Below, piece after piece: positions 4,413-22,738 of a stretch of DNA of 64,000 bases. The position numbers and the translations under genes were made by a program. The notes beneath the pieces were generated by a model. That model worked only from the letters and a program-made list of their open reading frames with translations, searched no databases and was not told where the DNA came from. Within the stretch, counting starts at the first letter, position 1. Each line of letters begins with the position of its first letter. Source of the stretch: a virus; IMG/VR virus record IMGVR_UViG_3300045988_167643. The stretch is one strand, 5' to 3'.

Positions 4413-6182
4413 TCACTCATTTCCACGTTCTTTGGATTTACTACCAGAATCGGTTAGATCATCAGAATCTTTACTTGGGGCACCGCCATTAATAGGATCG
4501 GTATCTGAAGTTGGTTGACTACCTGATTGGGTATAGCTTGTACTTAATGGATTGGACATTAAATCAACAAGTCCTAAGTCACGTTCAAGTTTAAGAAGTG
4601 AAATTTGCTCTAATGGTGTATTACCATCGAGAATTCCAATTGACATTCGAGAAAATCCATTTTGGGCTGATTCAACTAATTCTTTACGTTTTGACTTTTT
4701 TGTGTATGGGCTAACTCCATCTATATATTTAAAATATCCATGTCCAGTTCCTATAGTGTAATTAAAATATAAATTCAAGTATCTTTGAACCTGTGGTAAA
4801 AGAGTACTTTGACCATATTTCATATCTGCAATAATCTGTGCTTCGTAAATTGTTGTTCCAGATTTATCTGAATTAAGAATAACACCACCTATATGTTTAA
4901 ATATATTTGCTATTGAGTTAGAAATCATATCGCTGTCATCGGTATTATTTAAATCTTTAAATTCAATTGTCTCAATTGGAAGTGGAGAAATGGCAGCATT
5001 AACACATTCTGGAAGATTTGCTTCTAGCTTATTGTAATATTTTAAGGCTGTTTCTGGATCAACCTCAAAATCGTCTGGCTCATCTGCCCCTGTAAGAGGC
5101 TTTAGTCTTGCAACTAATAATTTATAAGCACTAAGCTGATCTTTTACTGACTGAATTCCAAGTAAATCCACGGCATTTATCAAAATCTCAAATAGCGATG
5201 AAAAACTCGGGTAATCCATAGTCGGATCATCACTATTTACTTTAAAACAAACCTGTCTTTCAGGCTCAAGTTCCTGCCATCTTAATGTAGAATCTTTCTG
5301 ATATGCTTCATATTTAGATTTGAATTCAGAATCCCAATATTCAAGATATGCTTCATGTGATCTGAAATAAGAAAAGTCAAATGCAAATCTGAATACACCT
5401 GCTTCAACAGATGATACTCTACAATAATCTCCATCAAGAATCTGATAGAAACAAGTTCCACCTTCCTGATCAGAATCATCATAAACATATGCGTACACAG
5501 AGTCTTCACGCCAAGCTACAAGAAGTAGTTTTACAAGTTCACTGGCAAAATCCATACGTTGCCAACGAATCATAGTCTCATACCAAGTATTAGTACGTTC
5601 CTCTGGAGTCATTTCCTGCGTAGGATCATCCAATGGGATAATATTGAACGCATCTCCACAAATCATAGTCGCATAGTGTAAACAGATACGTCTGTACTCA
5701 TAGCAAAGTCTGTACAGATACCGGCTTAAATTCCTTAACTGAGACTCGTATGATTTTGGTGATTTCATATAAGTACGAAGTGTTTCCCTGGAATATGTCT
5801 GGAAAGTACGCGATTCAGTTTTTGACAAATCGGTAAGCTGCAATGCGTCTATCATAGCCTTTGTGGTTTTTGCCATTTCAAGCACACGTTCATGTTTCGT
5901 AAGTGTTGTTGACATTTCAGCTACAGTTTTCTTCCCTTTTGGTGTATCAATAGTTGGAACAGTGGCTGATTTGTTTAATAGTAATTTATCAACTTTGTCC
6001 AGTTTCTTTGTTGAAGTAGAATTTGTGGACTTAGTTGTTTTAGTTGTTGATACTTTAGTTGTTTTTGGAGCTACCTTTGACTTCGAAGTGGAAGCTGAGG
6101 CAGTTGTATTAACGGTTTTATTTGAAATAGGTGTACCGTCCTGCACCTTTGGCTTATTTTTACTACCTTTGGGTCTACCCAT
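4413..6182 (-). CDS. putative portal protein
   Basis: 589 aa, located between large terminase and the protease/scaffold-like gene (canonical synteny). Has a K/S/T-rich N-terminal tail. No motif-level proof. Confidence 0.45.
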   Translation of the reverse strand: MGRPKGSKNKPKVQDGTPISNKTVNTTASASTSKSKVAPKTTKVSTTKTTKSTNSTSTKKLDKVDKLLLNKSATVPTIDTPKGKKTVAEMSTTLTKHERVLEMAKTTKAMIDALQLTDLSKTESRTFQTYSRETLRTYMKSPKSYESQLRNLSRYLYRLCYEYRRICLHYATMICGDAFNIIPLDDPTQEMTPEERTNTWYETMIRWQRMDFASELVKLLLVAWREDSVYAYVYDDSDQEGGTCFYQILDGDYCRVSSVEAGVFRFAFDFSYFRSHEAYLEYWDSEFKSKYEAYQKDSTLRWQELEPERQVCFKVNSDDPTMDYPSFSSLFEILINAVDLLGIQSVKDQLSAYKLLVARLKPLTGADEPDDFEVDPETALKYYNKLEANLPECVNAAISPLPIETIEFKDLNNTDDSDMISNSIANIFKHIGGVILNSDKSGTTIYEAQIIADMKYGQSTLLPQVQRYLNLYFNYTIGTGHGYFKYIDGVSPYTKKSKRKELVESAQNGFSRMSIGILDGNTPLEQISLLKLERDLGLVDLMSNPLSTSYTQSGSQPTSDTDPINGGAPSKDSDDLTDSGSKSKERGNE

Positions 6183-6296
6183 TGGTACACCTGCCTTTCT
6201 ATTTATTGTTTTTGATTTGGATTGATTGGAATTTATTTTAAGAAGTAAGAGGTGGGAGAGTAGTTGGTGTTGGTTGATGGGATAGTGTTAGATTTA

Positions 6297-8426
6297 TTAA
6301 TCGAAATAAGAATGACGCTTCGCTGTACGGATTGGTAGGATGTCAGCGAGGTTTGAAGTTGATTTTTTCTTTTTACCGGTAATACTTTTTCTTCGTTCTT
6401 GCATAAGAGCATAAGATATTAGACAGGCTGTATACGCGCGGTCATCATGCATTTTATTAGCTTTTTCTGGTGTAAGCTCAAATGAATCCTTTCCAGATTC
6501 ACGTTTTTTACGAACCATATTAACAAGTTCCTCTTTTAAGGCATCAATATTAGTAAGGGCAAGTTTATCAGCCCAGTCGAGTTTTACAATTTTAGTCTTT
6601 ACCGATTGAACCTTAGAAAGTTCTTCTCTAAGTTGTTTTTCAAATTCTTCTTCATTAAGTTTTTGTTTCTTCAACTCAGAAACAATTCTAGTTTTTTCTT
6701 TCTTTAAAAGCTTTTCATCTATATCAAACATAGATAGATAATCTTTATTATCATAAGAAGCAGTGAAACTAATTTTATCTTGATTCATAAGTTCAATCAT
6801 TGCCTCATACATTTCTGATTTATATGCAGCTGGTGCCATTAAATGTAATTTATTCACAGCGTTTGGAAATTTTTTCACATATTCAGCTGAATACTCTTTA
6901 TCAATTAGACCTCTATGCATAATTCCTTTATCATCTACCCAATCTTCCATAAGATAATCCGCTATATTAACACCTGCTCCACCAGAACCTGCATCAATAT
7001 AAACTCCTACAATATTATCATAATTATCTGCACCACCATTATAGTCAAGAATAAGCTGTTTTAAATATTTAACTTGATCTGGTGTTTGCATTGGTGACTT
7101 AATTTTCTTTCCGACATCTATAAGGTTTACACAGTTTACAATGCGCATTCTCTTGTCAATAGTACCGTCAATTTGTTCAAAGTCATAAATTTCCCCAACA
7201 GTGATAACACTATTGTCTCTGCTTCTAGCCGGATCAAAGCCTATGGCAAAACGTTTGTTACCTGTATCATTGTATAGAAGTGGTTTTCTTACTTCCTCAT
7301 TTCTCGTAATAACACCGCGTTTAATAATTGCATCACTACCTGCTTGTGTACTGAAAATGCAATAATATTCACGTAATGCTTTCTCTGGATTTGTTCTCAT
7401 CGCTGCTTCTATAGTAGATTTGCTATAAAGCGGAGCAATTAACTTTCCGTGTTTTGTTGGTTTTAATACTATTTCACAATCAATTTGCGCAACAAAATAA
7501 TCAGTATCTCCCATAATCATTCGTTTCGAGAAATCTCTATATAGCTTATAAAATTCTGTATCAACACTGGATGCAGAACTGATGTAAAACAACTGATTTT
7601 GCACAGGAGATGGGATTGCACGAAGTCTATTAATATCAATAGAATTACCATCTCTATCCTTACCGGTAGCAAAACCTTTATTTACAATAACAAATGCAGC
7701 GTATGTATGCATCATATCAGCATCAAGAAACCCACACTCATCAAAACAACAAAAATTGCTTCGAGCGCCGCGCTTCTTATCCACATTACTATTTAATGTC
7801 TTTGTCATTGAACCATTATAAAGTGAATAAGAGAATCCATCAGATGAATGACTAAATCCGTCTCCTGCAGCATTTTTTATTTCAACTTCATTTTTGAAAA
7901 TATATCCAGTAGATCCCATCATACTTTCAATATTGTCATTAGCCAATTTTTCAAGAGTAGTAAATGTCTGTTCTGCCTGTGAACCAGAACCACTTGCTAT
8001 ATAACTCCAATAATTAGTAAAAAGCATGTCCTTAGACATAATTACAATATCAGTTATTGTGCTTTTTCCAAAACCACGACTACATACAAGTAACACATTT
8101 GGACACATCCATGCTCTTTGAACTATATATGCTTGTGCATCTAGTAATTCTATATTAAAAAAATCATCTATAAATTTTACTGGATTTGCTTGATAATATT
8201 TTTGAATTTCTGCTAATGCTATAAGTGATTCAATTTTCCTCTGAGATAGAGCATATATACCACGTTTTACATAGACATCATATTTATAATTATTATCAAA
8301 AATATCATTAAGATATTGCTTTTTTATTCCAGATACTTGTTTTAATTTATATTTACTATAATCAATTTGTGAGGTTATCTGATTGATTGTTTTCTCCGCT
8401 TTCGGATTGATCATCATCACTATCAA
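6297..8426 (-). CDS. terL: terminase large subunit
   Basis: 709 aa. Walker A-like CSRGFGKST, Walker B CCFDECGF, and RNaseH-like nuclease motifs GFDPARSRDNSVITVGEIY and VYIDAGSGGAG. Confidence 0.85.
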   Translation of the reverse strand: MIVMMINPKAEKTINQITSQIDYSKYKLKQVSGIKKQYLNDIFDNNYKYDVYVKRGIYALSQRKIESLIALAEIQKYYQANPVKFIDDFFNIELLDAQAYIVQRAWMCPNVLLVCSRGFGKSTITDIVIMSKDMLFTNYWSYIASGSGSQAEQTFTTLEKLANDNIESMMGSTGYIFKNEVEIKNAAGDGFSHSSDGFSYSLYNGSMTKTLNSNVDKKRGARSNFCCFDECGFLDADMMHTYAAFVIVNKGFATGKDRDGNSIDINRLRAIPSPVQNQLFYISSASSVDTEFYKLYRDFSKRMIMGDTDYFVAQIDCEIVLKPTKHGKLIAPLYSKSTIEAAMRTNPEKALREYYCIFSTQAGSDAIIKRGVITRNEEVRKPLLYNDTGNKRFAIGFDPARSRDNSVITVGEIYDFEQIDGTIDKRMRIVNCVNLIDVGKKIKSPMQTPDQVKYLKQLILDYNGGADNYDNIVGVYIDAGSGGAGVNIADYLMEDWVDDKGIMHRGLIDKEYSAEYVKKFPNAVNKLHLMAPAAYKSEMYEAMIELMNQDKISFTASYDNKDYLSMFDIDEKLLKKEKTRIVSELKKQKLNEEEFEKQLREELSKVQSVKTKIVKLDWADKLALTNIDALKEELVNMVRKKRESGKDSFELTPEKANKMHDDRAYTACLISYALMQERRKSITGKKKKSTSNLADILPIRTAKRHSYFD

Positions 8427-9717
8427 CCTCCTGTTCGCCTAATTCATCTGCGGAGAAATAGGCATATAAATTATCCAAATCAACTAAATTATTTTGATCA
8501 AGTAACCCATTTTCCTTAAGTACATCTTTTAAATCAATATTTTCTCTTAGTAAGATCCTAGAAATTTCCTTATAATGTCTGCAATCTTCTTGATATTTTC
8601 GGACCATAACACGTTGTTCTGCAACAATATCAGACCATTCTGATTCATCTAAATGAAGCTGCTTCATAATAGAAGCATCACTCATTTCCATAACCTGTTG
8701 CATACCTTTACATGTCCAAATATCAAAACCATTTACTTCACCTTCACGAAGATTAAGATCTTTTATTTTTTTAATCTTACCAGTCCAGGTATTTTCACCT
8801 TTCTTGGCATTCTTATTATTTTTTAGGGAAATACAGCTCTCTGCCGCAAGACTTGTAATAACAGAAGATACTTTACTTTTACTATCCTGAAGAGATTTAA
8901 TGGTTGCTGAATTTTTCTCAATATTATCAATATCAACCATAGCTTTTGAAATTGCGTTATCAAGTTTAGATTGTTGAAGAAACCCTCTTACAATAGAAAT
9001 ACATGAAGCATTTCTCATCATATCATCATTTCCATCACCACCAGCGTCTATAAGACCAATTAACTGTGCATATAAAAATGGTTGGTCAGTAACTTCTTCA
9101 AATTCAAACGGATCATATCCTAAAAGCCTAATAACATCTTTTTTATTTTTATAAAAATCTTGCAATGTTTCAGGACTCATTTTGTTTAATATGTCATTAT
9201 TTGAACTATGTTCTTCTTTGACCTCAACATTCCCATCATCTTCATCTGAGTCCCTATATGTAAGAGTGTAATATTGGGGCATAGCAATATTTTTTACATA
9301 AGAATCAAACGGAGTTTCACGAGTTTTACCAGAATGTAAATTTTCAGACTCAGTAACACTAGAGTCCCAAACTTCTTTTAAAAACGGTTTATTAAGATAA
9401 GAGAGTGCAAATTTCATACTTTCCTCAGTGCAATATTTTTCTCCTGTTTTATCACTTAACACAGCTAATTCTTTTGCACAATCCTTACAGATTGAAGTAA
9501 CACCAAGTTTATTAAGTGGATCTGTACTTGTGTAAAATTTATATTTTGGTTTTAATTTTCCACAAATATAACAAGTTGCATAATTATTTCTAAGCTCATT
9601 GATTTCTGCATTTAACTTATCTATTTCTGCTTGAGACTCTTTAAGCTTTAATCTTGCCTGGGCAGCTGTTAGTTTTGCTGGTGCTATTATTTTCTTTTCA
9701 GTAGCCGTAACAGCCAC
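8362..9717 (-). CDS. hypothetical protein; candidate small terminase / packaging accessory
   Basis: 451 aa, overlaps the terL start. N-terminal coiled coil plus a CxxC...CxxC ribbon and an acidic C-terminus. The call rests on position only. Confidence 0.3.
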   Translation of the reverse strand: MAVTATEKKIIAPAKLTAAQARLKLKESQAEIDKLNAEINELRNNYATCYICGKLKPKYKFYTSTDPLNKLGVTSICKDCAKELAVLSDKTGEKYCTEESMKFALSYLNKPFLKEVWDSSVTESENLHSGKTRETPFDSYVKNIAMPQYYTLTYRDSDEDDGNVEVKEEHSSNNDILNKMSPETLQDFYKNKKDVIRLLGYDPFEFEEVTDQPFLYAQLIGLIDAGGDGNDDMMRNASCISIVRGFLQQSKLDNAISKAMVDIDNIEKNSATIKSLQDSKSKVSSVITSLAAESCISLKNNKNAKKGENTWTGKIKKIKDLNLREGEVNGFDIWTCKGMQQVMEMSDASIMKQLHLDESEWSDIVAEQRVMVRKYQEDCRHYKEISRILLRENIDLKDVLKENGLLDQNNLVDLDNLYAYFSADELGEQEVDSDDDQSESGENNQSDNLTN

Positions 9718-9746
9718 CTCCTTTTTATCATAAAATAAGAGACGGT

Positions 9747-10916
9747 TTACGCCGCCCCTTTTAATTCGTTAATATAATTAATTACTATAGTCTCTATATT
9801 ACATTTTTCCCAATATGGGATTCTAAGCAATTTAATATTATTGCTTTTACAATATTCGTCTTTTATTTTATCTCTGCGTTTAGTATTTTCAAAATTTAAT
9901 ATACTTGTTTTTTCTGAGTATGGACCAAACCTAATTGGCATATAATGCTGTTCTCCATCATATTCTATTAAACCTAGTAATTTTTCGTTATCATAAATTC
10001 CAAAGTCAAAACGTAATGGAGCTACATCAATACAATCTTTAAAAGAAACTTGTTTGTTATATTTACAATTTTCTTTTTCTAAAATATTTCCTATAATTTT
10101 TTCATTTTTTGAAGCAATGCAACCACAACTTATTGTGTGTCCATTTTTTAAATTTCCAGAACTAACAACAACATGATTCCCACATTCACATAAACATTCC
10201 CATTGAACAGAAAATGATCCATTCGGATGAATTAAGTTATCAGAACGCTTAACCACTGTTAACATTCCAAACTTTTGTCCTGTTAAATTTTCAAAACTTC
10301 TTTCTGATGATATTCTGGATCGTAAGCAACCACATGATTTTGCTTGACCATTTCTTAAATTACTTTGTGAAATAATTTTTACATTCCCACAGCTACACTT
10401 GCAATTCCATTGTGTGTTTTGAAACCCATTTGGTGATATGTAATTTTCAGCTCTACTAAGAACTATTAATTGTCCAAACTGCATACCTGTTAAATCAATT
10501 AAACACCTCTCAGATGTATTTTGATTTCTTTTACATCCGCATCCTTTAGTATGTCCTGATGTTAAATTAGAAGATTCTACTATAGTTTCATTTCCACAAT
10601 CACACCGACATAGCCATTTTACTTTTTTTCTATTTGAATGTACTAAATCATCAACCCTTTTTATAACAATTAGTGTACCAAAACGCTGCCCTGTAAGATC
10701 CTTAAAATTTGGCGGTGTATGTTTTATACATCCACAATGAGTCTTTTTACCATTACGCAATTTTGCACCATCTGCAACACAATCATTACCACAGTCACAA
10801 ATACATTTCCAATAAATTCTATCTTTTTGTTTATGGTCAATTTCTTTTGCAACTAATTTTCCAAAACGTTGACCTGTCAAATCAATAAATTTCATATAAC
10901 CAACTTCTCCAATCAA
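9747..10916 (-). CDS. endonuclease with four tandem Zn-ribbon modules and a C-terminal DUF559/Vsr-like PD-(D/E)XK domain
   Basis: 389 aa. A ~65-aa module (DLTGQRFGxLxV...W.C.C.CGN...L..G...(S)CGC) repeats four times. The C-terminus reads RFDFGIY...LIEYDGEQH...RRD...LLRIPYWE. Confidence 0.65.
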   Translation of the reverse strand: MIGEVGYMKFIDLTGQRFGKLVAKEIDHKQKDRIYWKCICDCGNDCVADGAKLRNGKKTHCGCIKHTPPNFKDLTGQRFGTLIVIKRVDDLVHSNRKKVKWLCRCDCGNETIVESSNLTSGHTKGCGCKRNQNTSERCLIDLTGMQFGQLIVLSRAENYISPNGFQNTQWNCKCSCGNVKIISQSNLRNGQAKSCGCLRSRISSERSFENLTGQKFGMLTVVKRSDNLIHPNGSFSVQWECLCECGNHVVVSSGNLKNGHTISCGCIASKNEKIIGNILEKENCKYNKQVSFKDCIDVAPLRFDFGIYDNEKLLGLIEYDGEQHYMPIRFGPYSEKTSILNFENTKRRDKIKDEYCKSNNIKLLRIPYWEKCNIETIVINYINELKGAA

Positions 10917-11352: not shown

Positions 11353-11426
11353 TTATTTTTTCCTGTCACCGGTATGCGAAATCTACACCATGCCTCCGGT
11401 GGAATACTATGTCGTAAATAGGAAAA

Positions 11427-11499
11427 CTGGGATGGTGGGATTTGGACCCACGACATACTGATTAACGGTCAGCCGTTCTACCAACTGGACTACATCCCA
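11427..11499 (-). tRNA. tRNA-Asn (anticodon GUU) with C instead of U at position 33
   Basis: Hand-folded cloverleaf: acceptor TGGGATG/CATCCCA, anticodon arm GCTGA-CCGTTAA-TCAGT, T arm GTGGG-TCCAAAT-CCCAC. The D and variable regions resemble E. coli tRNA-Asn. Confidence 0.75.
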
Positions 11500-11549
11500 A
11501 GACGCTGGACCGAAGCCCAGCTTGGAGAAATAATAATGAAAACGAAAAA

Positions 11550-11593: not shown

Positions 11594-11597
11594 TTAG

Positions 11598-11679
11598 TGG
11601 ATGGAGAAGGATTCGAACCTTCGAAGGCAGAACCGCCTGATTTACAGTCAGGAGCGTTTAACCACTTCGCTATCCATCC
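11598..11679 (-). tRNA. tRNA-Tyr (anticodon GUA), type II with long variable arm
   Basis: Acceptor GGATGGA/TCCATCC, anticodon arm CCTGA-CTGTAAA-TCAGG, long variable arm, T arm GAAGG-TTCGAAT-CCTTC. Confidence 0.85.
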
Positions 11680-11716: not shown

Positions 11717-11806
11717 AGGCAGTGTACCTGGACTTGAACCAGGAATCTTCATTTGTATATTTACCAGAATTTGAATATGACGCTTTACCATTAAGCTATA
11801 CCTGCC
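11717..11806 (-). tRNA. tRNA-like gene with canonical D and T arms but a 22-nt anticodon loop and a bulged acceptor stem
   Basis: D arm GCTT-AATGGTA-AAGC and T arm CCTGG-TTCAAGT-CCAGG are canonical. The anticodon stem TCATA/AATGA encloses TTCAAATTCTGGTAAATATACA. Acceptor GGCAGGTA pairs with TAC(A)CTGCC, leaving one bulged A. Confidence 0.5.
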
Positions 11807-13039: not shown

Positions 13040-13051
13040 AATAGTTTTTTA

Positions 13052-13786
13052 TTATTTTTTAGAAACTGAATTGTATTTTTCAATCCAATCTTTATAATTA
13101 TCAATAATCCATTTGCGACCTTTTTCAGTCCATTTTAATACCGGTTTATATTTTTCTTCTTTATAACTTTCATAATCTGCATATCCATCTGTAATCAGCC
13201 ATTTATATTCTTCATAAGGATACCAATTACCATTCTTAAATAAAATACGATTCACATGCATAATTTCATTTAATTTAGCTGCATGTAATCCAAGATCTTT
13301 TGCAATAATACTTGTATTAATTAATCCATTTTTCTTAAGAACATCATCATAATATGTAGCTTTTGGTTTTAAAACTGCATTTTCTTTTTCAAGTTCTTCA
13401 TTCTTTTCAACTTCTACAAGAAGCTGCACTAGAGCTTCTTTGTAATTTACTGGAAGTTTTGGCTCAGAATGAGATGATAACTGTTTTTCCATTTCATTAA
13501 ATGCTTCAATATATTTTAATTTCCATTCAAGAGCATCTTTCCCAGTAAACCCCATCGCCAGAAGAGAAAAACCATCACGATTAATGAGATATTCGGTATA
13601 AGTTCGTCCTCTTGAATTCTTATATTCTGAATAAATAAACATATTTTTCACGGCGGAATTTTCCGCTGTGAGATTTCGTATTGATTCAAGAACATCTTTA
13701 TGAGCTTTATTAAAATGTTCTGCAATTTCACGACTTGTTGTTAATACTTGTCCATTTTCAATAGAAACTAATTCATTTTTAATCAT
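13052..13786 (-). CDS. phage antirepressor (Rha N-terminal domain plus KilAC/ANT C-terminal domain)
   Basis: 244 aa. N-terminus LVSIENGQVLTTSREIAEHFNKAHKDVLESIRNL is Rha-like. C-terminus ATYYDDVLKKNGLINTSIIAKDLGL...ILFKNGNWYP is KilAC-like. Confidence 0.8.
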   Translation of the reverse strand: MIKNELVSIENGQVLTTSREIAEHFNKAHKDVLESIRNLTAENSAVKNMFIYSEYKNSRGRTYTEYLINRDGFSLLAMGFTGKDALEWKLKYIEAFNEMEKQLSSHSEPKLPVNYKEALVQLLVEVEKNEELEKENAVLKPKATYYDDVLKKNGLINTSIIAKDLGLHAAKLNEIMHVNRILFKNGNWYPYEEYKWLITDGYADYESYKEEKYKPVLKWTEKGRKWIIDNYKDWIEKYNSVSKK

Positions 13787-13857: not shown

Positions 13858-13992
13858 CTTACGTGAGATGACTACGGCAATAGCCATCCCAATATGAAAG
13901 AGTGCTATGATAAAAATATCAAAACAGAGGGTTAATCACCTCGCGTAAGAAAACAATGTTTATATTCCCACAGGACTATCACAGCCCTGTGG
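13858..13992. repeat. structured intergenic element, copy 2
   Basis: cttacgtgagatga (13858-13871) pairs with tcacctcgcgtaag (13936-13949). Hairpin ccacaggactatcacagccctgtgg lies at 13968-13992. Confidence 0.6.
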
Positions 13993-14016
13993 TTTATCAA
14001 AAATGAAAAATTCTAT

Positions 14017-14289
14017 TTATCTAGCAGCATCCTTTACAGCTTTTGCCAGTTTTGCCTTAACAGTTTTATGAGGTTTAATCATCAGATCTTCCCCAGTGAG
14101 CGGATTGCGGCCTTTTCTTCCAGCTACATCCTTAACTTCAAGACTTCCAAATCCTGGTACTCTAATATCCTCGCCAGCTTTCAGTGTCTCCATGATAACT
14201 TCCTGAAGTGCTGTTACGATCTCACCTGTCTCCTTAATTGTCTTCTCTGCTTTAGTTGCTGTTGCTTTAATAAGTTCAGTTTTAGTCAT
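14017..14289 (-). CDS. hup: HU/IHF-family DNA-binding protein
   Basis: 90 aa. MTKTELI...VPGFGSLEVKDVAGRKGRNPLTGEDLMIKPHKTVKAKL is a classic HU fold signature. Confidence 0.9.
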   Translation of the reverse strand: MTKTELIKATATKAEKTIKETGEIVTALQEVIMETLKAGEDIRVPGFGSLEVKDVAGRKGRNPLTGEDLMIKPHKTVKAKLAKAVKDAAR

Positions 14290-16745: not shown

Positions 16746-18185
16746 TTATAATCTCAAAAACATATCTTTAGAGCTACATAATACTTTATAACTCTTGTCA
16801 TTTTTTGAGATTGATTTTTGTAAATCTTCCTTAAGCTCTAACTTTGATTCCTCAGAGCCGTGGACCAATATTAATTTTTCAGTTTTTAGACTTGATCCAA
16901 ACTTAACTAAATCATCATGATTTGCATGACTTGAAAAAGTATAGAGTGAAATACAGTCTGCTTTATTTTCAACCACAGTATGGTTAATTTTTAATTGTTT
17001 GAAGTCTTTATAATTCTTGATTCTATATGCCAGATAACTTGGATTATCACCACAATAACCACATAAACAAATCATACTGTTTTCATCGGCAATATATTTT
17101 TCCAGGTATTTTAAAATTCTACCGTTAGTACAAAAACCGCTGCTTGAAATTACAATCTTAGGCTGATCATCAGCTACACAAGTATCTGATTCTGCTTTAT
17201 CAGAGATAAATCGTACATTTTCCCATTCTGTTACTTTATTCCAAAGCTTTAAATTATCTCCAGATAGAATTTCAGAATAAATATTAGAAATTTCACAACT
17301 GAGCATAGAATCTACAACTACTGGTGCTTTAAATTTAGTATCACTACCAAAAATCTCATATAAAACAGTAAGAATTTCCTGTGTACGTGAAAATGAGAAG
17401 CATGGAATAATAACACTACCATTTCTTTCAAACACAGTCTCAACAGCAGTTTTTAAATGTTCTTTATCAAATTTACGTGTCTTTTTACTGGTTCTTTGTT
17501 TTGAACCATAAGTTGATTCCATAATTGTATAGTCGTTGAAACAATCCGGAATTTCTGTTTGAGAAAGATAATGATTTACTGGATTTATTGCTCCAATATC
17601 AGAAGTGTATAAGATTTTCTTACATCGTTGCTCGTCTTTAAGAATAAGCTGTAATTGTGCAGCACCAAGACAATGAGAATTTTTGAACCATTGGAAACTT
17701 ACGTTATCATCTAATCTAAAAACTGTATTGTATTGATCATAAACATAAAAGAAACCCAATGTTCTTTCTACATCATCCATTGTATAAAGTGGAGAGTAAT
17801 CACGATTATATCTTTTGGATAATATACGTGCTTCATCTGCTACAATAAATGCACAGTTTCTTAATAATGCTTCGGCAATTCGTGCTGCTTTATCTGTGAG
17901 GATTATTTTACCCTTAAAACCTTCTTTTATAAGACGTGGAAGCAGTCCAATATGGTCAATGTGACAATGTTCTACGAAAATATATGATATTTCGCTTGGT
18001 TTAAATGGGAATTTCTTGGAATTAATTTTATAAGAATCAAGATAATCATTAGAAGATGCCTGATATAATCCACATTCTAATAGAATTTGTTTACCGGCAA
18101 ATTGAATATGGTAGCATGATCCTGTGACTTCATTTGAGGACATGCCAGCAAAAGTGATACCATCACCTTTTTTCTTTTTAGCCAT
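16746..18185 (-). CDS. metallo-beta-lactamase / beta-CASP nuclease (RNase J/CPSF-like)
   Basis: 479 aa. HCHIDHIG (HxHxDH), SHCLGAA and TSDIG, plus beta-CASP motifs ESTYG, FSSHA and LVHGSE. Confidence 0.8.
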   Translation of the reverse strand: MAKKKKGDGITFAGMSSNEVTGSCYHIQFAGKQILLECGLYQASSNDYLDSYKINSKKFPFKPSEISYIFVEHCHIDHIGLLPRLIKEGFKGKIILTDKAARIAEALLRNCAFIVADEARILSKRYNRDYSPLYTMDDVERTLGFFYVYDQYNTVFRLDDNVSFQWFKNSHCLGAAQLQLILKDEQRCKKILYTSDIGAINPVNHYLSQTEIPDCFNDYTIMESTYGSKQRTSKKTRKFDKEHLKTAVETVFERNGSVIIPCFSFSRTQEILTVLYEIFGSDTKFKAPVVVDSMLSCEISNIYSEILSGDNLKLWNKVTEWENVRFISDKAESDTCVADDQPKIVISSSGFCTNGRILKYLEKYIADENSMICLCGYCGDNPSYLAYRIKNYKDFKQLKINHTVVENKADCISLYTFSSHANHDDLVKFGSSLKTEKLILVHGSEESKLELKEDLQKSISKNDKSYKVLCSSKDMFLRL

Positions 18186-18205: not shown

Positions 18206-18391
18206 TTATTTTAATTTTTCCGCCTTATCAGCGTACCAATCTTCAATGTACCTCTTATTTCCACAGGTTTTATAATACCCCACATGGTACCCTCTGGAAT
18301 TCATATACCCTCCTGAGTATGGCTTTAAGATTTTTTTATCAATAAGGGACTGGATACCCTCTTTTGTAATTGTTTTAATAACAATACACAC
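18206..18391 (-). CDS. small hypothetical protein; start uncertain (GTG at 18391 or ATG giving 32 aa)
   Basis: This is the C-terminal part of the 110-aa track ORF. The N-terminal part of that ORF overlaps tRNA-Met and is discounted. An AGGAGGG sequence precedes the internal ATG. Confidence 0.3.
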   Translation of the reverse strand: MCIVIKTITKEGIQSLIDKKILKPYSGGYMNSRGYHVGYYKTCGNKRYIEDWYADKAEKLK

Positions 18392-18428
18392 CTTTCGTTC
18401 TAAATTTCCTCGTAAGAGAGGATAATAA

Positions 18429-18502
18429 TTGCAGGAGACAGATTTGAACTGCCGATCTTCAGAGCATGAATCTGACGAGATACCAAACTTCTCTATCCTG
18501 CG
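18429..18502 (-). tRNA. tRNA-Met/Ile2-type (anticodon CAU) with a C1xA72 mismatch
   Basis: Acceptor CGCAGGA/TCCTGCA (C1 opposite A72), D stem GAGA/TCTC, anticodon arm TCAGA-TTCATGC-TCTGA, T arm GGCAG-TTCAAAT-CTGTC. Confidence 0.8.
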
Positions 18503-18774
18503 ACATTCATATTGCAAAGGGACCGAATATATATCCAATCCCTCTACAATATATGAATCAGAAATTTCTGGCCGTATACATACGTGTCTCGGCTCTTGGA
18601 CACGGGAGCTTAATTTCGGAACTCTCCAATTTCATCTAAAAACTGTTTCCACTTTAAACAGTACGAATGGTTGTGGATGCCATTCATCTCTCTCCATATA
18701 TGGGAAGATATTCGACATTAAAAAAAACCATATAAATAAAGGGGAAAACGAACATTATTGCAAAAGTTCTTGTT

Positions 18775-21561
18775 TCATTTGCAAATAACAAAGTTGCTTA
18801 AAAATTTTTCATGATTATATTGATATACTGTGTTTAAGATTTTTCTAGCATATTTTTGTGGATTTTTTAATTTAAAATCTCTTCCAGCATATTTTTTCCC
18901 AATTCCAAGTGCAATCTCTATCAAACGATTAATTGTTTTTTTATTTCCGATTTTCATATGTGATATTTGATCCAATGTATTCTTAGCAATTTCTGCTAAT
19001 GAATCAACATATTCATCACGCTCAACTGATAGGCTGTTTAATGCTTTTATAGCGTTATCATACTCGTTTATAATTTTCATTATTTTTGTTACTTGTGCAC
19101 TTGATGCTGTACCATCCATTTTAATGAAAAAATTTTCTGTTGGAATAGTAGTAGTTTTGCTTGCCCCCTGTATTTTATCTAACCACTCTTGTAACCAATT
19201 CATTGGACAAATTAAATCATTATTAATACGACCTTTTAATTTATTCCTTGATTCATCAATGTCTTCAAATGGAAGTTCCTTGCCATCTTTTGTTGTTTTT
19301 ATTTCTCTTGTATACTGCATAAATTGTGGAAAGTCACATTTTACTGTTTTTACATTCCCATTTTTATCAATTACTTCTTTTTTCATTGACATACATGGAA
19401 GTTTACTAATCCTATCAATCTCTTTAACACCATCAATTTCATAAAGCCTCTTGCAGCTATCGATTATTACTTGAGCAAGAACGCTTAGAATTACGAAATT
19501 ATCTGACAGTTCATCAAGTCTTTTTGGATCTGGATTATCACTCTGTAACTCACTCCAGTAATAAGTCATGGCAAGCTGTGCCAAATTACTGGAATATCCA
19601 ATTCCGATTCTTGATTTAGAAAATGTATTGTCCATACGTGCATATTCTGATTTGTTATTTTTATAAACGACACCACTTTCTTTTAAGTCATTGACAATAG
19701 TAGGGTAGTGTTTATAGCAATAAGCTGCACACTTAACCATTGTCGGCTGATTTGTGGCTAGAACGAAATCCGAATCATGATCGCTTCCGTTACTTCTTGC
19801 TTGAAAGTCAGTCTCAATATTATTTACAGCAATAATATTTTTTGAAAATTCAAAGTATTTTTCCATCTCGTTACTATATACATTATGAAAATAACAAATA
19901 TTATTTGGGGAATTGTGAGGATTACGAAATGCACATAGATGTTCGTCATGTTGAAATCTTGTAGTGTAACACTGAATTACACTATTCTCACTTTTTAGAG
20001 TAGGATCTTTTGTAAAATCCTCACCAACAGAATAGAGTAGAAGAGCATAAGGGTTTCCACATGTTGTTAAATTGTCACCATTTACAACAATCTTGCCTTT
20101 TCTAAGCTTGTGTACATATGCAGAAATAATTTTTGACTTCTCATGTCTGAAAAATGTACTATTGCCAAATTCATGGTTGTGATCATATAAATCAGCCATC
20201 ATCTCATAGTGGTTTACCTCATTAGCATTTTTTCTTAAGAATTTCTCAAACTCATTATTATCCTGCTTCAGTAACTCCACATATTCAATACTGGTGCTTG
20301 CAATATCCCTTACATCATCTTTGGTACATGGGAGAGTATTAACCATCTGATAACTGAGCTGTTGATATTCACCAAGTTTACTAGGATGATCGGTTTTTAC
20401 AATACCGAACACGCTGCCATCTTCATTTACCTTATTGCACCAATACTCATATGCAGATTCTAATGAGCCGCCCATTAAATCCTTAAATTTTTTCCATTTG
20501 ATGGCGTTGTCAGTAGTGATAATCTTAATGTCTTTCAAATAATGCCAATGACCAAACATGTCTTGGACCTGGTAAGTTTCGTAATCATTGCCGGTTTTCT
20601 TACACCAATCCTTAAAGAATAACTGTATATGAGATTTAAAACCACACATCTTAAATAAATGGTGTCTCATCAGAGCCATGCCGTTGATTTTAACAGTCCA
20701 TTCCGGATTATAAGCATTTCTGCAATCTTTAAAATAATCAGCTTCGATCAATCCCATACCATCCCAAAGTGTATTCTTGACTTCAGTAACCTTCTTATCT
20801 ACTACACATTTCTTACCAATTCGACCCTTAGAATCAATGTAATCTTCTGCACGAACAATATTAGCCATCGTCTTAAAAAATGAATCCTGGTCTCGTAGAA
20901 TGAGAATATCCTCTACAGGAATATACTTAGTTCCAACGATGGTAGATGTAGTAAGTGGAGCATAGGCAGACATCTCAACAATTTTTGCATTGTCATCTGT
21001 CATTAGTTTTCCAAGTCCGATAGTTAACCATTCGTAAGCCACTTCATAAAGTTCAGAGTTTATAAAGATAACCTGTCCAAGCTTTGCTTTAGCACTGGTT
21101 CGAAACAACATCTCATAGTGAATTGTTTCTTCACTTTTAATACTTCCATCTTTATTCTTAGTCTTATAAGTAACATCTACACCTTCGTTATAGAATTTAT
21201 CTCTGATCTGCTCACGTTTTTTTTCATCATAGAGATCTTTGTTGTTCTCAACTTTCTCTAATGTGTATTTAAGACGTTCCTTTAATTCGCCATCAGAATT
21301 TTTATATAACTGCTCAATTCGCTTATGTTCATCCTCATAAGATCTGGTTCCAAAGTCAAAGTCTAAGCAAATAATATCTCTAGTAGATTCACCTTTATAT
21401 ACATTAAGACCATTCTTTATAAGAAAAGCAGAGAATAAACTGTTATTAAGCATTGCTTCAATGTAAGAGAAATAATCTCTTGTCCCTAAATTAACATCAT
21501 ATAATGTACCGGCACTGATATTTTTAATTTTAATTCCAAACTCACTAATGATAATCACCAC
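18775..21561 (-). CDS. putative single-subunit two-barrel RNA polymerase (YonO / RdRP-like)
   Basis: 928 aa, no P-loop. The segment CAFRNPHNSPNNICYF...(about 35 aa)...NGSDHDSDFVLATNQ matches the RNPxxxPxxI strand plus the DxDxD metal loop of QDE-1/RDR-type and YonO polymerases. Confidence 0.45.
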   Translation of the reverse strand: MVIIISEFGIKIKNISAGTLYDVNLGTRDYFSYIEAMLNNSLFSAFLIKNGLNVYKGESTRDIICLDFDFGTRSYEDEHKRIEQLYKNSDGELKERLKYTLEKVENNKDLYDEKKREQIRDKFYNEGVDVTYKTKNKDGSIKSEETIHYEMLFRTSAKAKLGQVIFINSELYEVAYEWLTIGLGKLMTDDNAKIVEMSAYAPLTTSTIVGTKYIPVEDILILRDQDSFFKTMANIVRAEDYIDSKGRIGKKCVVDKKVTEVKNTLWDGMGLIEADYFKDCRNAYNPEWTVKINGMALMRHHLFKMCGFKSHIQLFFKDWCKKTGNDYETYQVQDMFGHWHYLKDIKIITTDNAIKWKKFKDLMGGSLESAYEYWCNKVNEDGSVFGIVKTDHPSKLGEYQQLSYQMVNTLPCTKDDVRDIASTSIEYVELLKQDNNEFEKFLRKNANEVNHYEMMADLYDHNHEFGNSTFFRHEKSKIISAYVHKLRKGKIVVNGDNLTTCGNPYALLLYSVGEDFTKDPTLKSENSVIQCYTTRFQHDEHLCAFRNPHNSPNNICYFHNVYSNEMEKYFEFSKNIIAVNNIETDFQARSNGSDHDSDFVLATNQPTMVKCAAYCYKHYPTIVNDLKESGVVYKNNKSEYARMDNTFSKSRIGIGYSSNLAQLAMTYYWSELQSDNPDPKRLDELSDNFVILSVLAQVIIDSCKRLYEIDGVKEIDRISKLPCMSMKKEVIDKNGNVKTVKCDFPQFMQYTREIKTTKDGKELPFEDIDESRNKLKGRINNDLICPMNWLQEWLDKIQGASKTTTIPTENFFIKMDGTASSAQVTKIMKIINEYDNAIKALNSLSVERDEYVDSLAEIAKNTLDQISHMKIGNKKTINRLIEIALGIGKKYAGRDFKLKNPQKYARKILNTVYQYNHEKFLSNFVICK

Positions 21562-21567
21562 CTTACA

Positions 21568-21867
21568 TTATTGATGATCTTTCTTAGTAGAATTTTTAGT
21601 TGATTTAAATTTATATTTATTTCCCTTATTCTTATTATTACTCTTTGTCCATCCAATAGAAGAAGCTGCAGCATTAATATTACAACTAGGAAATGGAGGA
21701 TAATCAGTCTCAAAGGCATATAAATTTAATATATTTGATGCATAGCGATGAAATTCTTCACGAGATGGTATAGCAGGAAATGTACCTCCTGTATAATAAT
21801 TTTTAGTAGTTTTAGATGATAATCTCTGTGTAAGTGCAACGTTGTCTGTGTTTACTTCTGTATTCAT
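21568..21867 (-). CDS. hypothetical protein (99 aa)
   Basis: Co-oriented ORF 6 nt upstream of the RNAP-like gene. Basic C-terminus. Confidence 0.5.
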   Translation of the reverse strand: MNTEVNTDNVALTQRLSSKTTKNYYTGGTFPAIPSREEFHRYASNILNLYAFETDYPPFPSCNINAAASSIGWTKSNNKNKGNKYKFKSTKNSTKKDHQ

Positions 21868-22140
21868 ATTTAGTATGTACTCCTTTTAACATAATTAGTA
21901 TTAATCCTTTCTGTGCGAGGTTGATAAGTTACATAACCTACTAAAAATGTGAAGGGTTGAAGGGTAGTAGGTTATATAAAATTCTTCTTAATAGAAAAAT
22001 TTTTTATTCACAAAAAATGCAAATGTGTTATTTCACATCTGACTATTAATTTCTTCTCTATTTAGTTATAAGTTATATTGGAATTTATTTATCTGAATAG
22101 ATAATGATAATAAATAATGACAATAATAATATAAAATCAA

Positions 22141-22394
22141 TTAGAACGAAGCTAGATGTTGAAGCGTAGCGAAACATATAGCGTAGTGATGACAAATGAA
22201 CGTAGCGTAAGCGAAGTGAGTGCGGCAGCCTCTGGTGGAACACCAGTAAAGTATAATCAAAATTTATAATAAATATTTCAAACTAACTATCCTGTCGTTC
22301 CGACAGTGCTTCACCGCATTCACTACGCTTACGCTACGTTCATTTGGAGTCACTTCACAATTTTTCGCTAACGCTTCAAAATTGTTCGTTCTAA
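22141..22394. repeat. 254-bp imperfect palindrome (arms about 85 bp, 88-bp centre with two mini-hairpins)
   Basis: Left arm 22141-22225 and right arm 22314-22394. The inner 33 bp pair with 2 mismatches. The centre holds ctggtg-gaa-caccag (22232-22246) and ctgtcg-ttc-cgacag (22292-22306). Confidence 0.85.
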
Positions 22395-22459
22395 ATTGGT
22401 TTGATTGTATATTTTTATTGGGATTTTTCCGTTTATAATTGGAATATCACGAGAGATCC

Positions 22460-22705
22460 TATATAAAATAAGGCTTAAATGTAATTATTACAAAAGTGTT
22501 AAGATTGTTTTCGCCTTATTTTATATAGCGAAAAAGCGTGTTAAAAAATCGTCCATTTAAACTTCCCTATATAAGAGAATATATATAATAATATATATTG
22601 GAATTATAAATGGACGATTTTTGATTTTGCCCTTATTTTATATGGCGAAAATGCCTTATTCCTAGTAATTTGGTAGACATTTGGTTTTACTATATAAAAT
22701 ATGGC
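22460..22705. promoter_or_regulatory. cluster of TATATAAAATAAGGC-type sites plus a 15-bp inverted repeat around an alternating-AT core
   Basis: Motif at 22460-22474 (+), 22513-22527 (-), 22629-22645 (-, variant) and 22691-22705 (+, variant). Perfect IR AAAATCGTCCATTTA (22545-22559) / TAAATGGACGATTTT (22607-22621). Confidence 0.7.
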
Positions 22706-22738
22706 TAAAATTAAATTTTCAACTTTTCTAAATTTGTA

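Follow-up and report, generated by a model that had tools for sequence, protein, structure and literature searches.

The question raised by this locus is what is encoded by the longest open reading frame (ORF) in a 64,000-nucleotide stretch of viral DNA (IMG/VR virus record IMGVR_UViG_3300045988_167643; hereafter the window). The ORF (18775-21561, minus strand) runs uninterrupted for 928 amino acids (aa), the runner-up in the window having 709 aa. An initial annotation, made from the sequence alone, had noted both its size and the lack of a P-loop, and a motif scan of the protein indeed detected no Walker A motif. The same annotation proposed a single-subunit RNA polymerase (RNAP) akin to YonO of phage SPbeta and to the cellular two-barrel enzymes. 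We conclude that the ORF very probably encodes a YonO-family two-barrel RNAP of a large SPbeta-like gut phage, for which DNA dependence and a role in late-gene expression are proposed by analogy with YonO. Homology, fold, catalytic signature and synteny each support this assignment.

Searches of Pfam, NCBIfam and PDB sequences with the window protein returned nothing significant, nor did a PDB sequence search with a profile of 47 family members. Because these direct searches failed, the link to known enzymes had to be made through PHROGs, hhalign comparison with YonO and structure prediction. Residues 97-887 of the window protein matched phrog_8308 (E = 2.3e-85), a PHROG annotated as 'unknown function'. 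YonO, taken from the SPbeta sequence (AF020713) and scanned against the same libraries, matched phrog_8308 along its entire length (E = 0) and itself has no Pfam or NCBIfam family. The window protein thus belongs to the PHROG that contains YonO. A profile built from an alignment of 95 homologs, reaching down to 27% identity, was then aligned with YonO by hhalign at 99.0% probability (E = 8.5e-18), with 505 collinear columns joining residues 145-753 of the window protein to residues 137-660 of YonO. In this register WDG lies on TDG, R299..K304 on R266..K271, FRNPH on LRSPH and DHDSD on DNDGD, so that the YonO residues brought into alignment are D249, R266 and K271, R492-S-P494, and D535-N-D537-G-D539. 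The last triad is catalytic in YonO, where a 3D>3N mutant is inactive (PMC5467207). The family is broad: a word-indexed protein search of 90%-identity clusters gave at least 2,411 matches among the candidates scored, and an exhaustive search of 50%-identity representatives gave 1,202 clusters within E<=1e-3, of which 595 reach E<=1e-30. Most members derive from gut metagenomes or from genomes of Lachnospiraceae/Ruminococcus, and databases call them 'hypothetical protein' or 'RNA dependent RNA polymerase'. The closest NCBI protein, a member of the same 90% cluster as the window protein, is a 'hypothetical protein [unclassified Ruminococcus]'.

We asked whether the protein carries the residues expected of a two-barrel active site. 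Ruprich-Robert and Thuriaux defined eight residues common to every two-barrel RNA polymerase: D709, R738, K743, R962, P964, D1007, D1009 and D1011 in QDE-1, and Rpb2 D837, K979 and K987 with Rpb1 R446, P448, D479, D481 and D483 in yeast RNA polymerase II (PMC2919709). All eight were found in the window protein, in the same order and with similar spacing, and are kept in 94-95 of the 95 homologs. R546, P548, D267, G268, R299 and K304 are invariant (95/95), as are D596 and D598, and D594 is present in 94/95, with N in the remaining sequence. The R-to-K spacing is 5 residues in the window protein (R299-K304), in QDE-1 and in YonO alike, and the R-x-P signature precedes the first aspartate of the triad by 48 residues here (R546 to D594), 45 in QDE-1 and 43 in YonO. 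The layout given in the initial annotation, an RNP strand followed by DHDSD, was therefore found as described, but the gap of about 35 aa that it stated was not: HLCAFRNPHNSPNNICYFHNVY (residues 541-562) and ARSNGSDHDSDFVLATNQ (residues 588-605) are separated by 25 aa. DHDSD (D594-H-D596-S-D598) is the single DxDxD in the protein. Since DxDxD was seen 7 times in 17,970 aa of six-frame window ORFs of at least 100 aa, the bare motif is weak evidence and proves nothing alone; it is the conservation of the aspartates across the 95 homologs, a check that had been suggested together with the assignment, that lifts it above chance.

An independent sign of strong constraint came from homing group I introns, which interrupt the polymerase gene at two sites in relatives of 95-99% identity; the window copy is intron-free. 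One insertion site lies at codon 595-596, inside the DHDSD triad, and is occupied in loci L076 and L089 by inserts of ~960-990 bp with an HNH_3/NUMOD4 endonuclease ORF. The other (...SVLA|QVIIDSCKR) holds a 284-bp intron in L076, L079 and L089 (Rfam Intron_gpI, 58.5 bits, E = 7.6e-14) and, in L031, a 1.3-kb insert that bears a GIY-YIG endonuclease. Splitting of the gene by introns accounts for the shortened homologs of 698-740 aa met in the protein search.

The same residues bear on whether the protein could be a two-barrel enzyme with another activity, such as a primase-like or PolD-like DNA polymerase, or a dead scaffold. Archaeal PolD shares the two-barrel core (PMC7708050), and the activity of the present clade is predicted only. 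However, a dead enzyme is unlikely because all eight catalytic residues are invariant across ~95 diverse homologs, no PolD chain is among the 50 Foldseek PDB matches listed, and YonO discriminates NTP from dNTP (PMC5467207). We consider a non-RNAP or inactive protein extremely unlikely.

An AlphaFold2 model computed from the 95-sequence alignment was of high quality throughout (mean predicted local distance difference test score 92.9, with no segment <50; predicted template-modelling score 0.91). When it was compared with PDB by Foldseek, ranks 1-20 were all cellular two-barrel RNA-dependent RNA polymerases (RdRPs), namely maize and Arabidopsis RDR2 and Neurospora and Thielavia QDE-1 (E 1.7e-12 to 2.2e-8, probability 1.0, template-modelling (TM) score 0.37-0.46, ~750-1070 columns). 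The largest subunits of multisubunit RNAPs came next with marginal scores (Rpb1, beta-prime E >=0.037). In BFVD, the best matches were phage proteins named 'RNA dependent RNA polymerase' (TM 0.76), followed weakly by crAss-like polymerases. The beta-rich segments 210-401 and 492-630 of the model hold the catalytic signatures, and both barrel signatures lie in one 928-aa chain. The Foldseek matches and the secondary-structure string of the model support two double-psi beta-barrels facing one active site. Structure prediction, which had been named as a check on the two-barrel fold, thus agrees with the shared PHROG and the hhalign result in upholding the initial assignment.

These structural matches also invite the reading that the protein is an RdRP, copying phage or host RNA into double-stranded or antisense RNA for regulation or counter-defence. 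RDR2 and QDE-1 (PDB 2J7N, 7Y7P-T, 7W82, 7ROZ) are its best solved-structure matches, at TM 0.40-0.46 over ~900-1000 columns, and share the eight-residue catalytic constellation; QDE-1 has both DNA- and RNA-dependent activity (PMC9508822); 1 of 47 family members matches the Pfam RdRP family PF05183 (3.3e-9); and relatives bear the RdRP name in databases. Against this, the two enzymes differ from the window protein in biology (RNA silencing) and template preference and are only 9-12% identical to it, and PF05183 is not matched by the window protein even at E<=1. By sequence, no characterised protein is nearer than YonO, which acts as a processive DNA-dependent RNAP on the SPbeta late operon (PMC5467207). 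Similarity of the model to RDR2/QDE-1 would not discriminate between template types. The database name is explained by similarity to QDE-1/RDR and PF05183 and was apparently transferred by automated similarity. It is carried without experiment by WDQ45559.1 of Enterocloster phage PMBT24 and by the 'MAG TPA: RNA dependent RNA polymerase [Caudoviricetes sp.]' records, phage proteins of gut Clostridia that are 21-67% identical to the window protein with the signature residues conserved, and the PMBT24 paper does not treat the gene as a polymerase. Together with the position of the gene at the head of a late block, which fits the role of YonO, these points make an RdRP very unlikely, and the naming of the relatives is probably wrong.

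Gene order was examined next, in the window and in 105 related loci taken from genomes and IMG/VR with 10-kb flanks. From ~24.6 kb down to 1.4 kb every gene of the window is on the minus strand, and a plus-strand block starts near 27.6 kb. Downstream of the polymerase lie, in order, tRNA-Met, a beta-CASP RNase gene, a ClpP-like protease, a phrog_704 nuclease, HU, an Ant-like gene, a tyrosine recombinase, tRNAs, an HNH endonuclease, a YonG-like gene, the large terminase and the portal (Table 1). By tblastn, the SPbeta counterparts of the recombinase, YonG-like, terminase and Ant-like genes are yomM, yonG, yonF and yoqD, respectively, and the arrangement resembles the SPbeta order yonO-yonN...yonG-yonF-yonE, in which all genes share one strand. 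Among the 105 loci, HU was found on the same strand downstream of the polymerase in 58, the recombinase in 49, ClpP in 36, the YonG-like gene in 24 and the terminase in 14, a count limited by the 10-kb flank; none of the five was found on the opposite strand. SPbeta YonN itself detects 51 of the 58 downstream HU genes. The order polymerase - HU - terminase - portal also holds in PMBT24. The stretch from the portal to the YonG-like gene (4413..9717) is presumed to be the start of the late/packaging block transcribed by the polymerase. In SPbeta, YonO initiates upstream of yonK and transcribes 37 late genes as one operon (PMC5467207; PMC8270828).

Lying on the strand of packaging and structural genes, the protein might instead be a virion-packaged polymerase that is injected with the DNA to transcribe early genes, as are crAss-like gp66 or the N4 virion RNAP. 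It shares the two-barrel superfamily and DxDxD chemistry with phi14:2 gp66, as with multisubunit beta/beta-prime, and its model weakly resembles the phi14:2 structural protein and crAss-like polymerases (E 2.5e-3 to 6e-3). In contrast to such enzymes, which differ in size and domain context and give marginal structural matches (phi14:2 gp66, Foldseek TM 0.12, E 2.5e-3), it is a standalone 928-aa protein rather than part of a giant virion protein, and its much nearer relative is YonO, a late RNAP that is not carried in the virion. Strong sigma-70-like promoters facing both ways at ~26.8-27.5 kb also suggest that host RNAP starts the programme. A virion RNAP is accordingly very unlikely.

As a YonO-type polymerase, the enzyme would be expected to use a DNA template, with promoter specificity, timing and a late-gene role like those of YonO. 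The active site would lie between the two double-psi beta-barrels, where D594, D596 and D598 (beta-prime-like) and D267 (beta-like) would hold two catalytic Mg2+ ions and R299, K304 and R546, the last positioned by P548, would contact the incoming nucleoside triphosphate and the RNA 3' end. Expression of the gene by the host polymerase would fall early or in mid-infection, possibly aided by a phage sigma-like factor, and from its own promoter the phage enzyme would go on to transcribe the late genes that lie on the same strand (HU, recombinase, YonG-like, terminase, portal onward). From the absence of beta/beta-prime accessory domains we infer that it would be insensitive to inhibitors of host RNAP such as rifampicin.

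Where such a promoter might lie was considered for two regions. The first is the 870-bp non-coding region upstream of the polymerase. The initial annotation had suggested a repeated TATATAAAATAAGGC-type motif as a candidate promoter. In the whole window, TATATAAAATAAGGC occurs 11 times at <=3 mismatches, where 7.1 +/- 2.7 would be expected and 13 of 100 shuffles give 11 or more; the four copies with <=2 mismatches all lie in 22460-22705, as two inverted pairs. A motif search of 25 related loci did not find it. Being neither enriched nor dispersed nor present in those relatives, TATATAAAATAAGGC was rejected as a dispersed polymerase promoter and is instead a local upstream element, with four copies within 250 bp. 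The same region contains an inverted repeat with 48-nt arms (22178-22225 / 22314-22361), a highly structured predicted RNA (22150-22390, minus strand; folding free energy -106.5 kcal/mol, z -11.4) and a terminator-like hairpin at 22020-22041, and it matches no Rfam family. Special conservation of the region was also considered and rejected: its identity to the 89%-identical relative L026 is 94-97%, about equal to that seen in the genes on either side. In SPbeta the equivalent position is the yonR-yonP interval, to which the pac site, or genome-opening point, has been mapped (PMC8270828; bioRxiv 10.1101/2021.11.22.469490). For this reason a promoter is no likelier here than an element for packaging or regulation, and candidates for the region include a pac site, a cluster of operators and a non-coding RNA. 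The second region, which follows the HU gene, was chosen by analogy with the position of the YonO promoter in SPbeta. A conserved non-coding block was sought there and rejected, as most relatives have the next gene directly. Directly after the HU stop codon, a hairpin, CCACAGGGCTGTGATAGTCCTGTGG (13960-14016, minus strand), is shared by the window with its closest relatives (HU identity 86-100%) and is missing from more distant ones; it may be a terminator or processing site lying where SPbeta has the YonO promoter region. A limited literature search found no work on a YonO promoter or structure later than 2017.

Several of these observations count against a YonO-like late RNAP and have to be set beside the evidence for it. 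Identity to YonO is only ~19%, and the window protein lacks the C-terminal four-cysteine motif (CxxC...CxxC) of YonO. Among solved structures, RNA-dependent enzymes come first, with no YonO structure in the PDB matches to rival them. For the window protein and its close relatives alike, activity is a prediction from sequence and model. No promoter candidate emerged for the polymerase, and a non-coding block after the HU gene is not conserved across relatives. Finally, terminator-like hairpins lie within the presumed late block, and a single long late operon is for that reason not assured. The window protein and YonO further differ in length (928 aa, against 839 aa for YonO), in the triad (DHDSD against DNDGD) and in the D-to-R spacing of the beta-like barrel, which is 15 residues longer in the window protein (32 against 17). 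What the two proteins have in common is phrog_8308, the collinear core of ~505 columns, both barrels in a single chain, alignment of all eight catalytic residues, and a place upstream of and co-oriented with HU, YonG-like, terminase and portal genes; on balance we hold to a YonO-family polymerase as the likely identity of the gene.

Table 1. Coordinates of the polymerase gene, its predicted catalytic codons and associated features. Positions are those of the window unless a related locus is named.
Feature	Position	Strand	Basis or remark
Polymerase gene, very probably YonO-type single-subunit two-barrel	18775..21561	-	ORF, phrog_8308, hhalign, AlphaFold2, Foldseek
D594-H-D596-S-D598 codons, predicted Mg2+-binding triad of the beta-prime-like barrel	19768..19782	-	Translation = DHDSD
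R546-N-P548 codons, R-x-P signature	19918..19926	-	Translation = RNP; equivalents QDE-1 R962/P964, Rpb1 R446/P448
D267...R299...K304 codons, beta-like barrel signature	20650..20763	-	Translation; equivalents QDE-1 D709/R738/K743
99-aa ORF, function unassigned	21568..21867	-	Ends 6 nt before polymerase start
Non-coding region, 870 bp, upstream of the polymerase operon	21868..22738	.	Repeats, hairpins
Beta-CASP metallo-beta-lactamase RNase gene, immediately downstream of polymerase	16746..18185	-	Pfam Beta-Casp 1.7e-19, RMMBL 2.9e-8
HU-type DNA-binding protein, counterpart of SPbeta yonN	14017..14289	-	Pfam Bac_DNA_binding 6e-26
YonG-like gene	8362-9717	-	tblastn to SPbeta yonG; L026 ortholog with Pfam YonG_N/YonG_C
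Large terminase	6297-8426	-	PHROG match; tblastn to SPbeta yonF
Portal	4413-6182	-	PHROG match
Probable divergent sigma-70-family factor, 239 aa	61682..62401	+	Sub-threshold profile matches
Intron inserts	L076:11787-12750 + 13042-13327; L089:8328-9322 + 9614-9898		
Intron inserts	L079:12075-12360; L031:12075-13383		

Placement of the 5' end of the polymerase gene leaves a margin of up to five codons: no good ribosome-binding site precedes the GTG start as called (21561), AAGGTGG stands ~7 nt ahead of an ATT at 21549, and homologs start MSEFGIKIKN. The 99-aa ORF just upstream is 99% identical in L026 and directly precedes the polymerase in 9 close loci; profile library scans gave no family match for it. 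The two genes are probably co-transcribed.

Several smaller features were noted along the late block. Its tRNA genes (18428-18503, 11426-11500, 11597-11679 and 11724-11801, all on the minus strand) comprise Met (CAT), Asn (GTT) and Tyr (GTA) and a fourth, weaker tRNA-like Rfam match. A 110-aa ORF (18206-18538) overlaps tRNA-Met, which means that only its C-terminal ~70 aa, conserved in loci L007 and L018, can be real. A free-standing gene for a 389-aa HNH homing endonuclease (9747-10916, minus strand) separates the tRNA cluster from the YonG-like and terminase genes. The YonG-like and terminase ORFs as called overlap by 65 nt.

A second candidate for redirecting transcription lies at the far end of the window, where the initial annotation had placed a sigma factor at 61.7 kb. 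Resemblance to the sigma-70 family was seen (TIGR02937, E 7.6e-7, 28.9 bits against a cutoff of 42.9; phrog_1740, 1.2e-4; Sigma70_r4_2, 0.002), but the matches are below threshold and do not establish its identity. Judged from these profile matches, the gene is a probable divergent phage sigma factor. Since PMBT24 also encodes a sigma factor, a cascade from host sigma to phage sigma to phage RNAP is plausible.

The hosts of the window phage and its relatives differ from that of SPbeta, a Bacillus phage. Relatives come from Clostridia, Lachnospiraceae among them, and some of these hosts have been cultured (Eisenbergiella porci, Ruminococcus sp. AM36-2AA and Clostridium subterminale); they sit there on contigs of 196 kb-1.1 Mb, indicative of prophages. 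The exact window protein is present on contigs of up to 217 kb, and IMG/VR contigs at 99% identity measure 182-222 kb. The phage is most likely a ~180-220 kb SPbeta-like phage or prophage of gut Lachnospiraceae/Ruminococcus.

A further difference from SPbeta is the frequent insertion of an RNase-type gene into the slot that follows the polymerase. Among 95 related loci, this slot holds a beta-CASP gene in 23 and a PIN-PhoH-like gene in 21, never both. In the window, the beta-CASP protein also matches the NCBIfam aCPSF1-like (2.6e-50) and Cas14-like (8e-70) models, both below cutoff. The slot gene of L026 (L026:13400-14623) has a PIN domain shortened by the gene caller. Beta-CASP nucleases (FttA/aCPSF1, CPSF73) terminate archaeal and eukaryotic two-barrel RNAPs. 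It is conceivable, though doubtful, that polymerase and RNase slot form a transcription-plus-RNA-processing module in which the nuclease terminates or processes the long late transcript, or else clears host mRNA. As a linked possibility, the hairpin-rich 870-bp upstream region could be a structured promoter or non-coding RNA used by the polymerase. If true, such a module would echo the beta-CASP termination of archaeal and eukaryotic two-barrel RNAPs; with the nuclease acting on the host instead, host mRNA would be cleared while phage transcription proceeds independently.

Since the enzyme class and what it does were known beforehand, the locus adds only modestly in concept. No simpler relatives of the cellular RNA polymerases are known than the YonO-type enzymes, among which YonO of SPbeta alone has been characterised. 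The present locus indicates that the family is not a Bacillus curiosity and has a populous gut-phage branch, the members of which are without a Pfam or NCBIfam model. Annotated correctly, these genes would draw attention to a late transcription system, independent of the host, in very abundant large gut phages, and the branch offers many natural variants for biochemistry, structure determination and orthogonal transcription tools in Clostridia.

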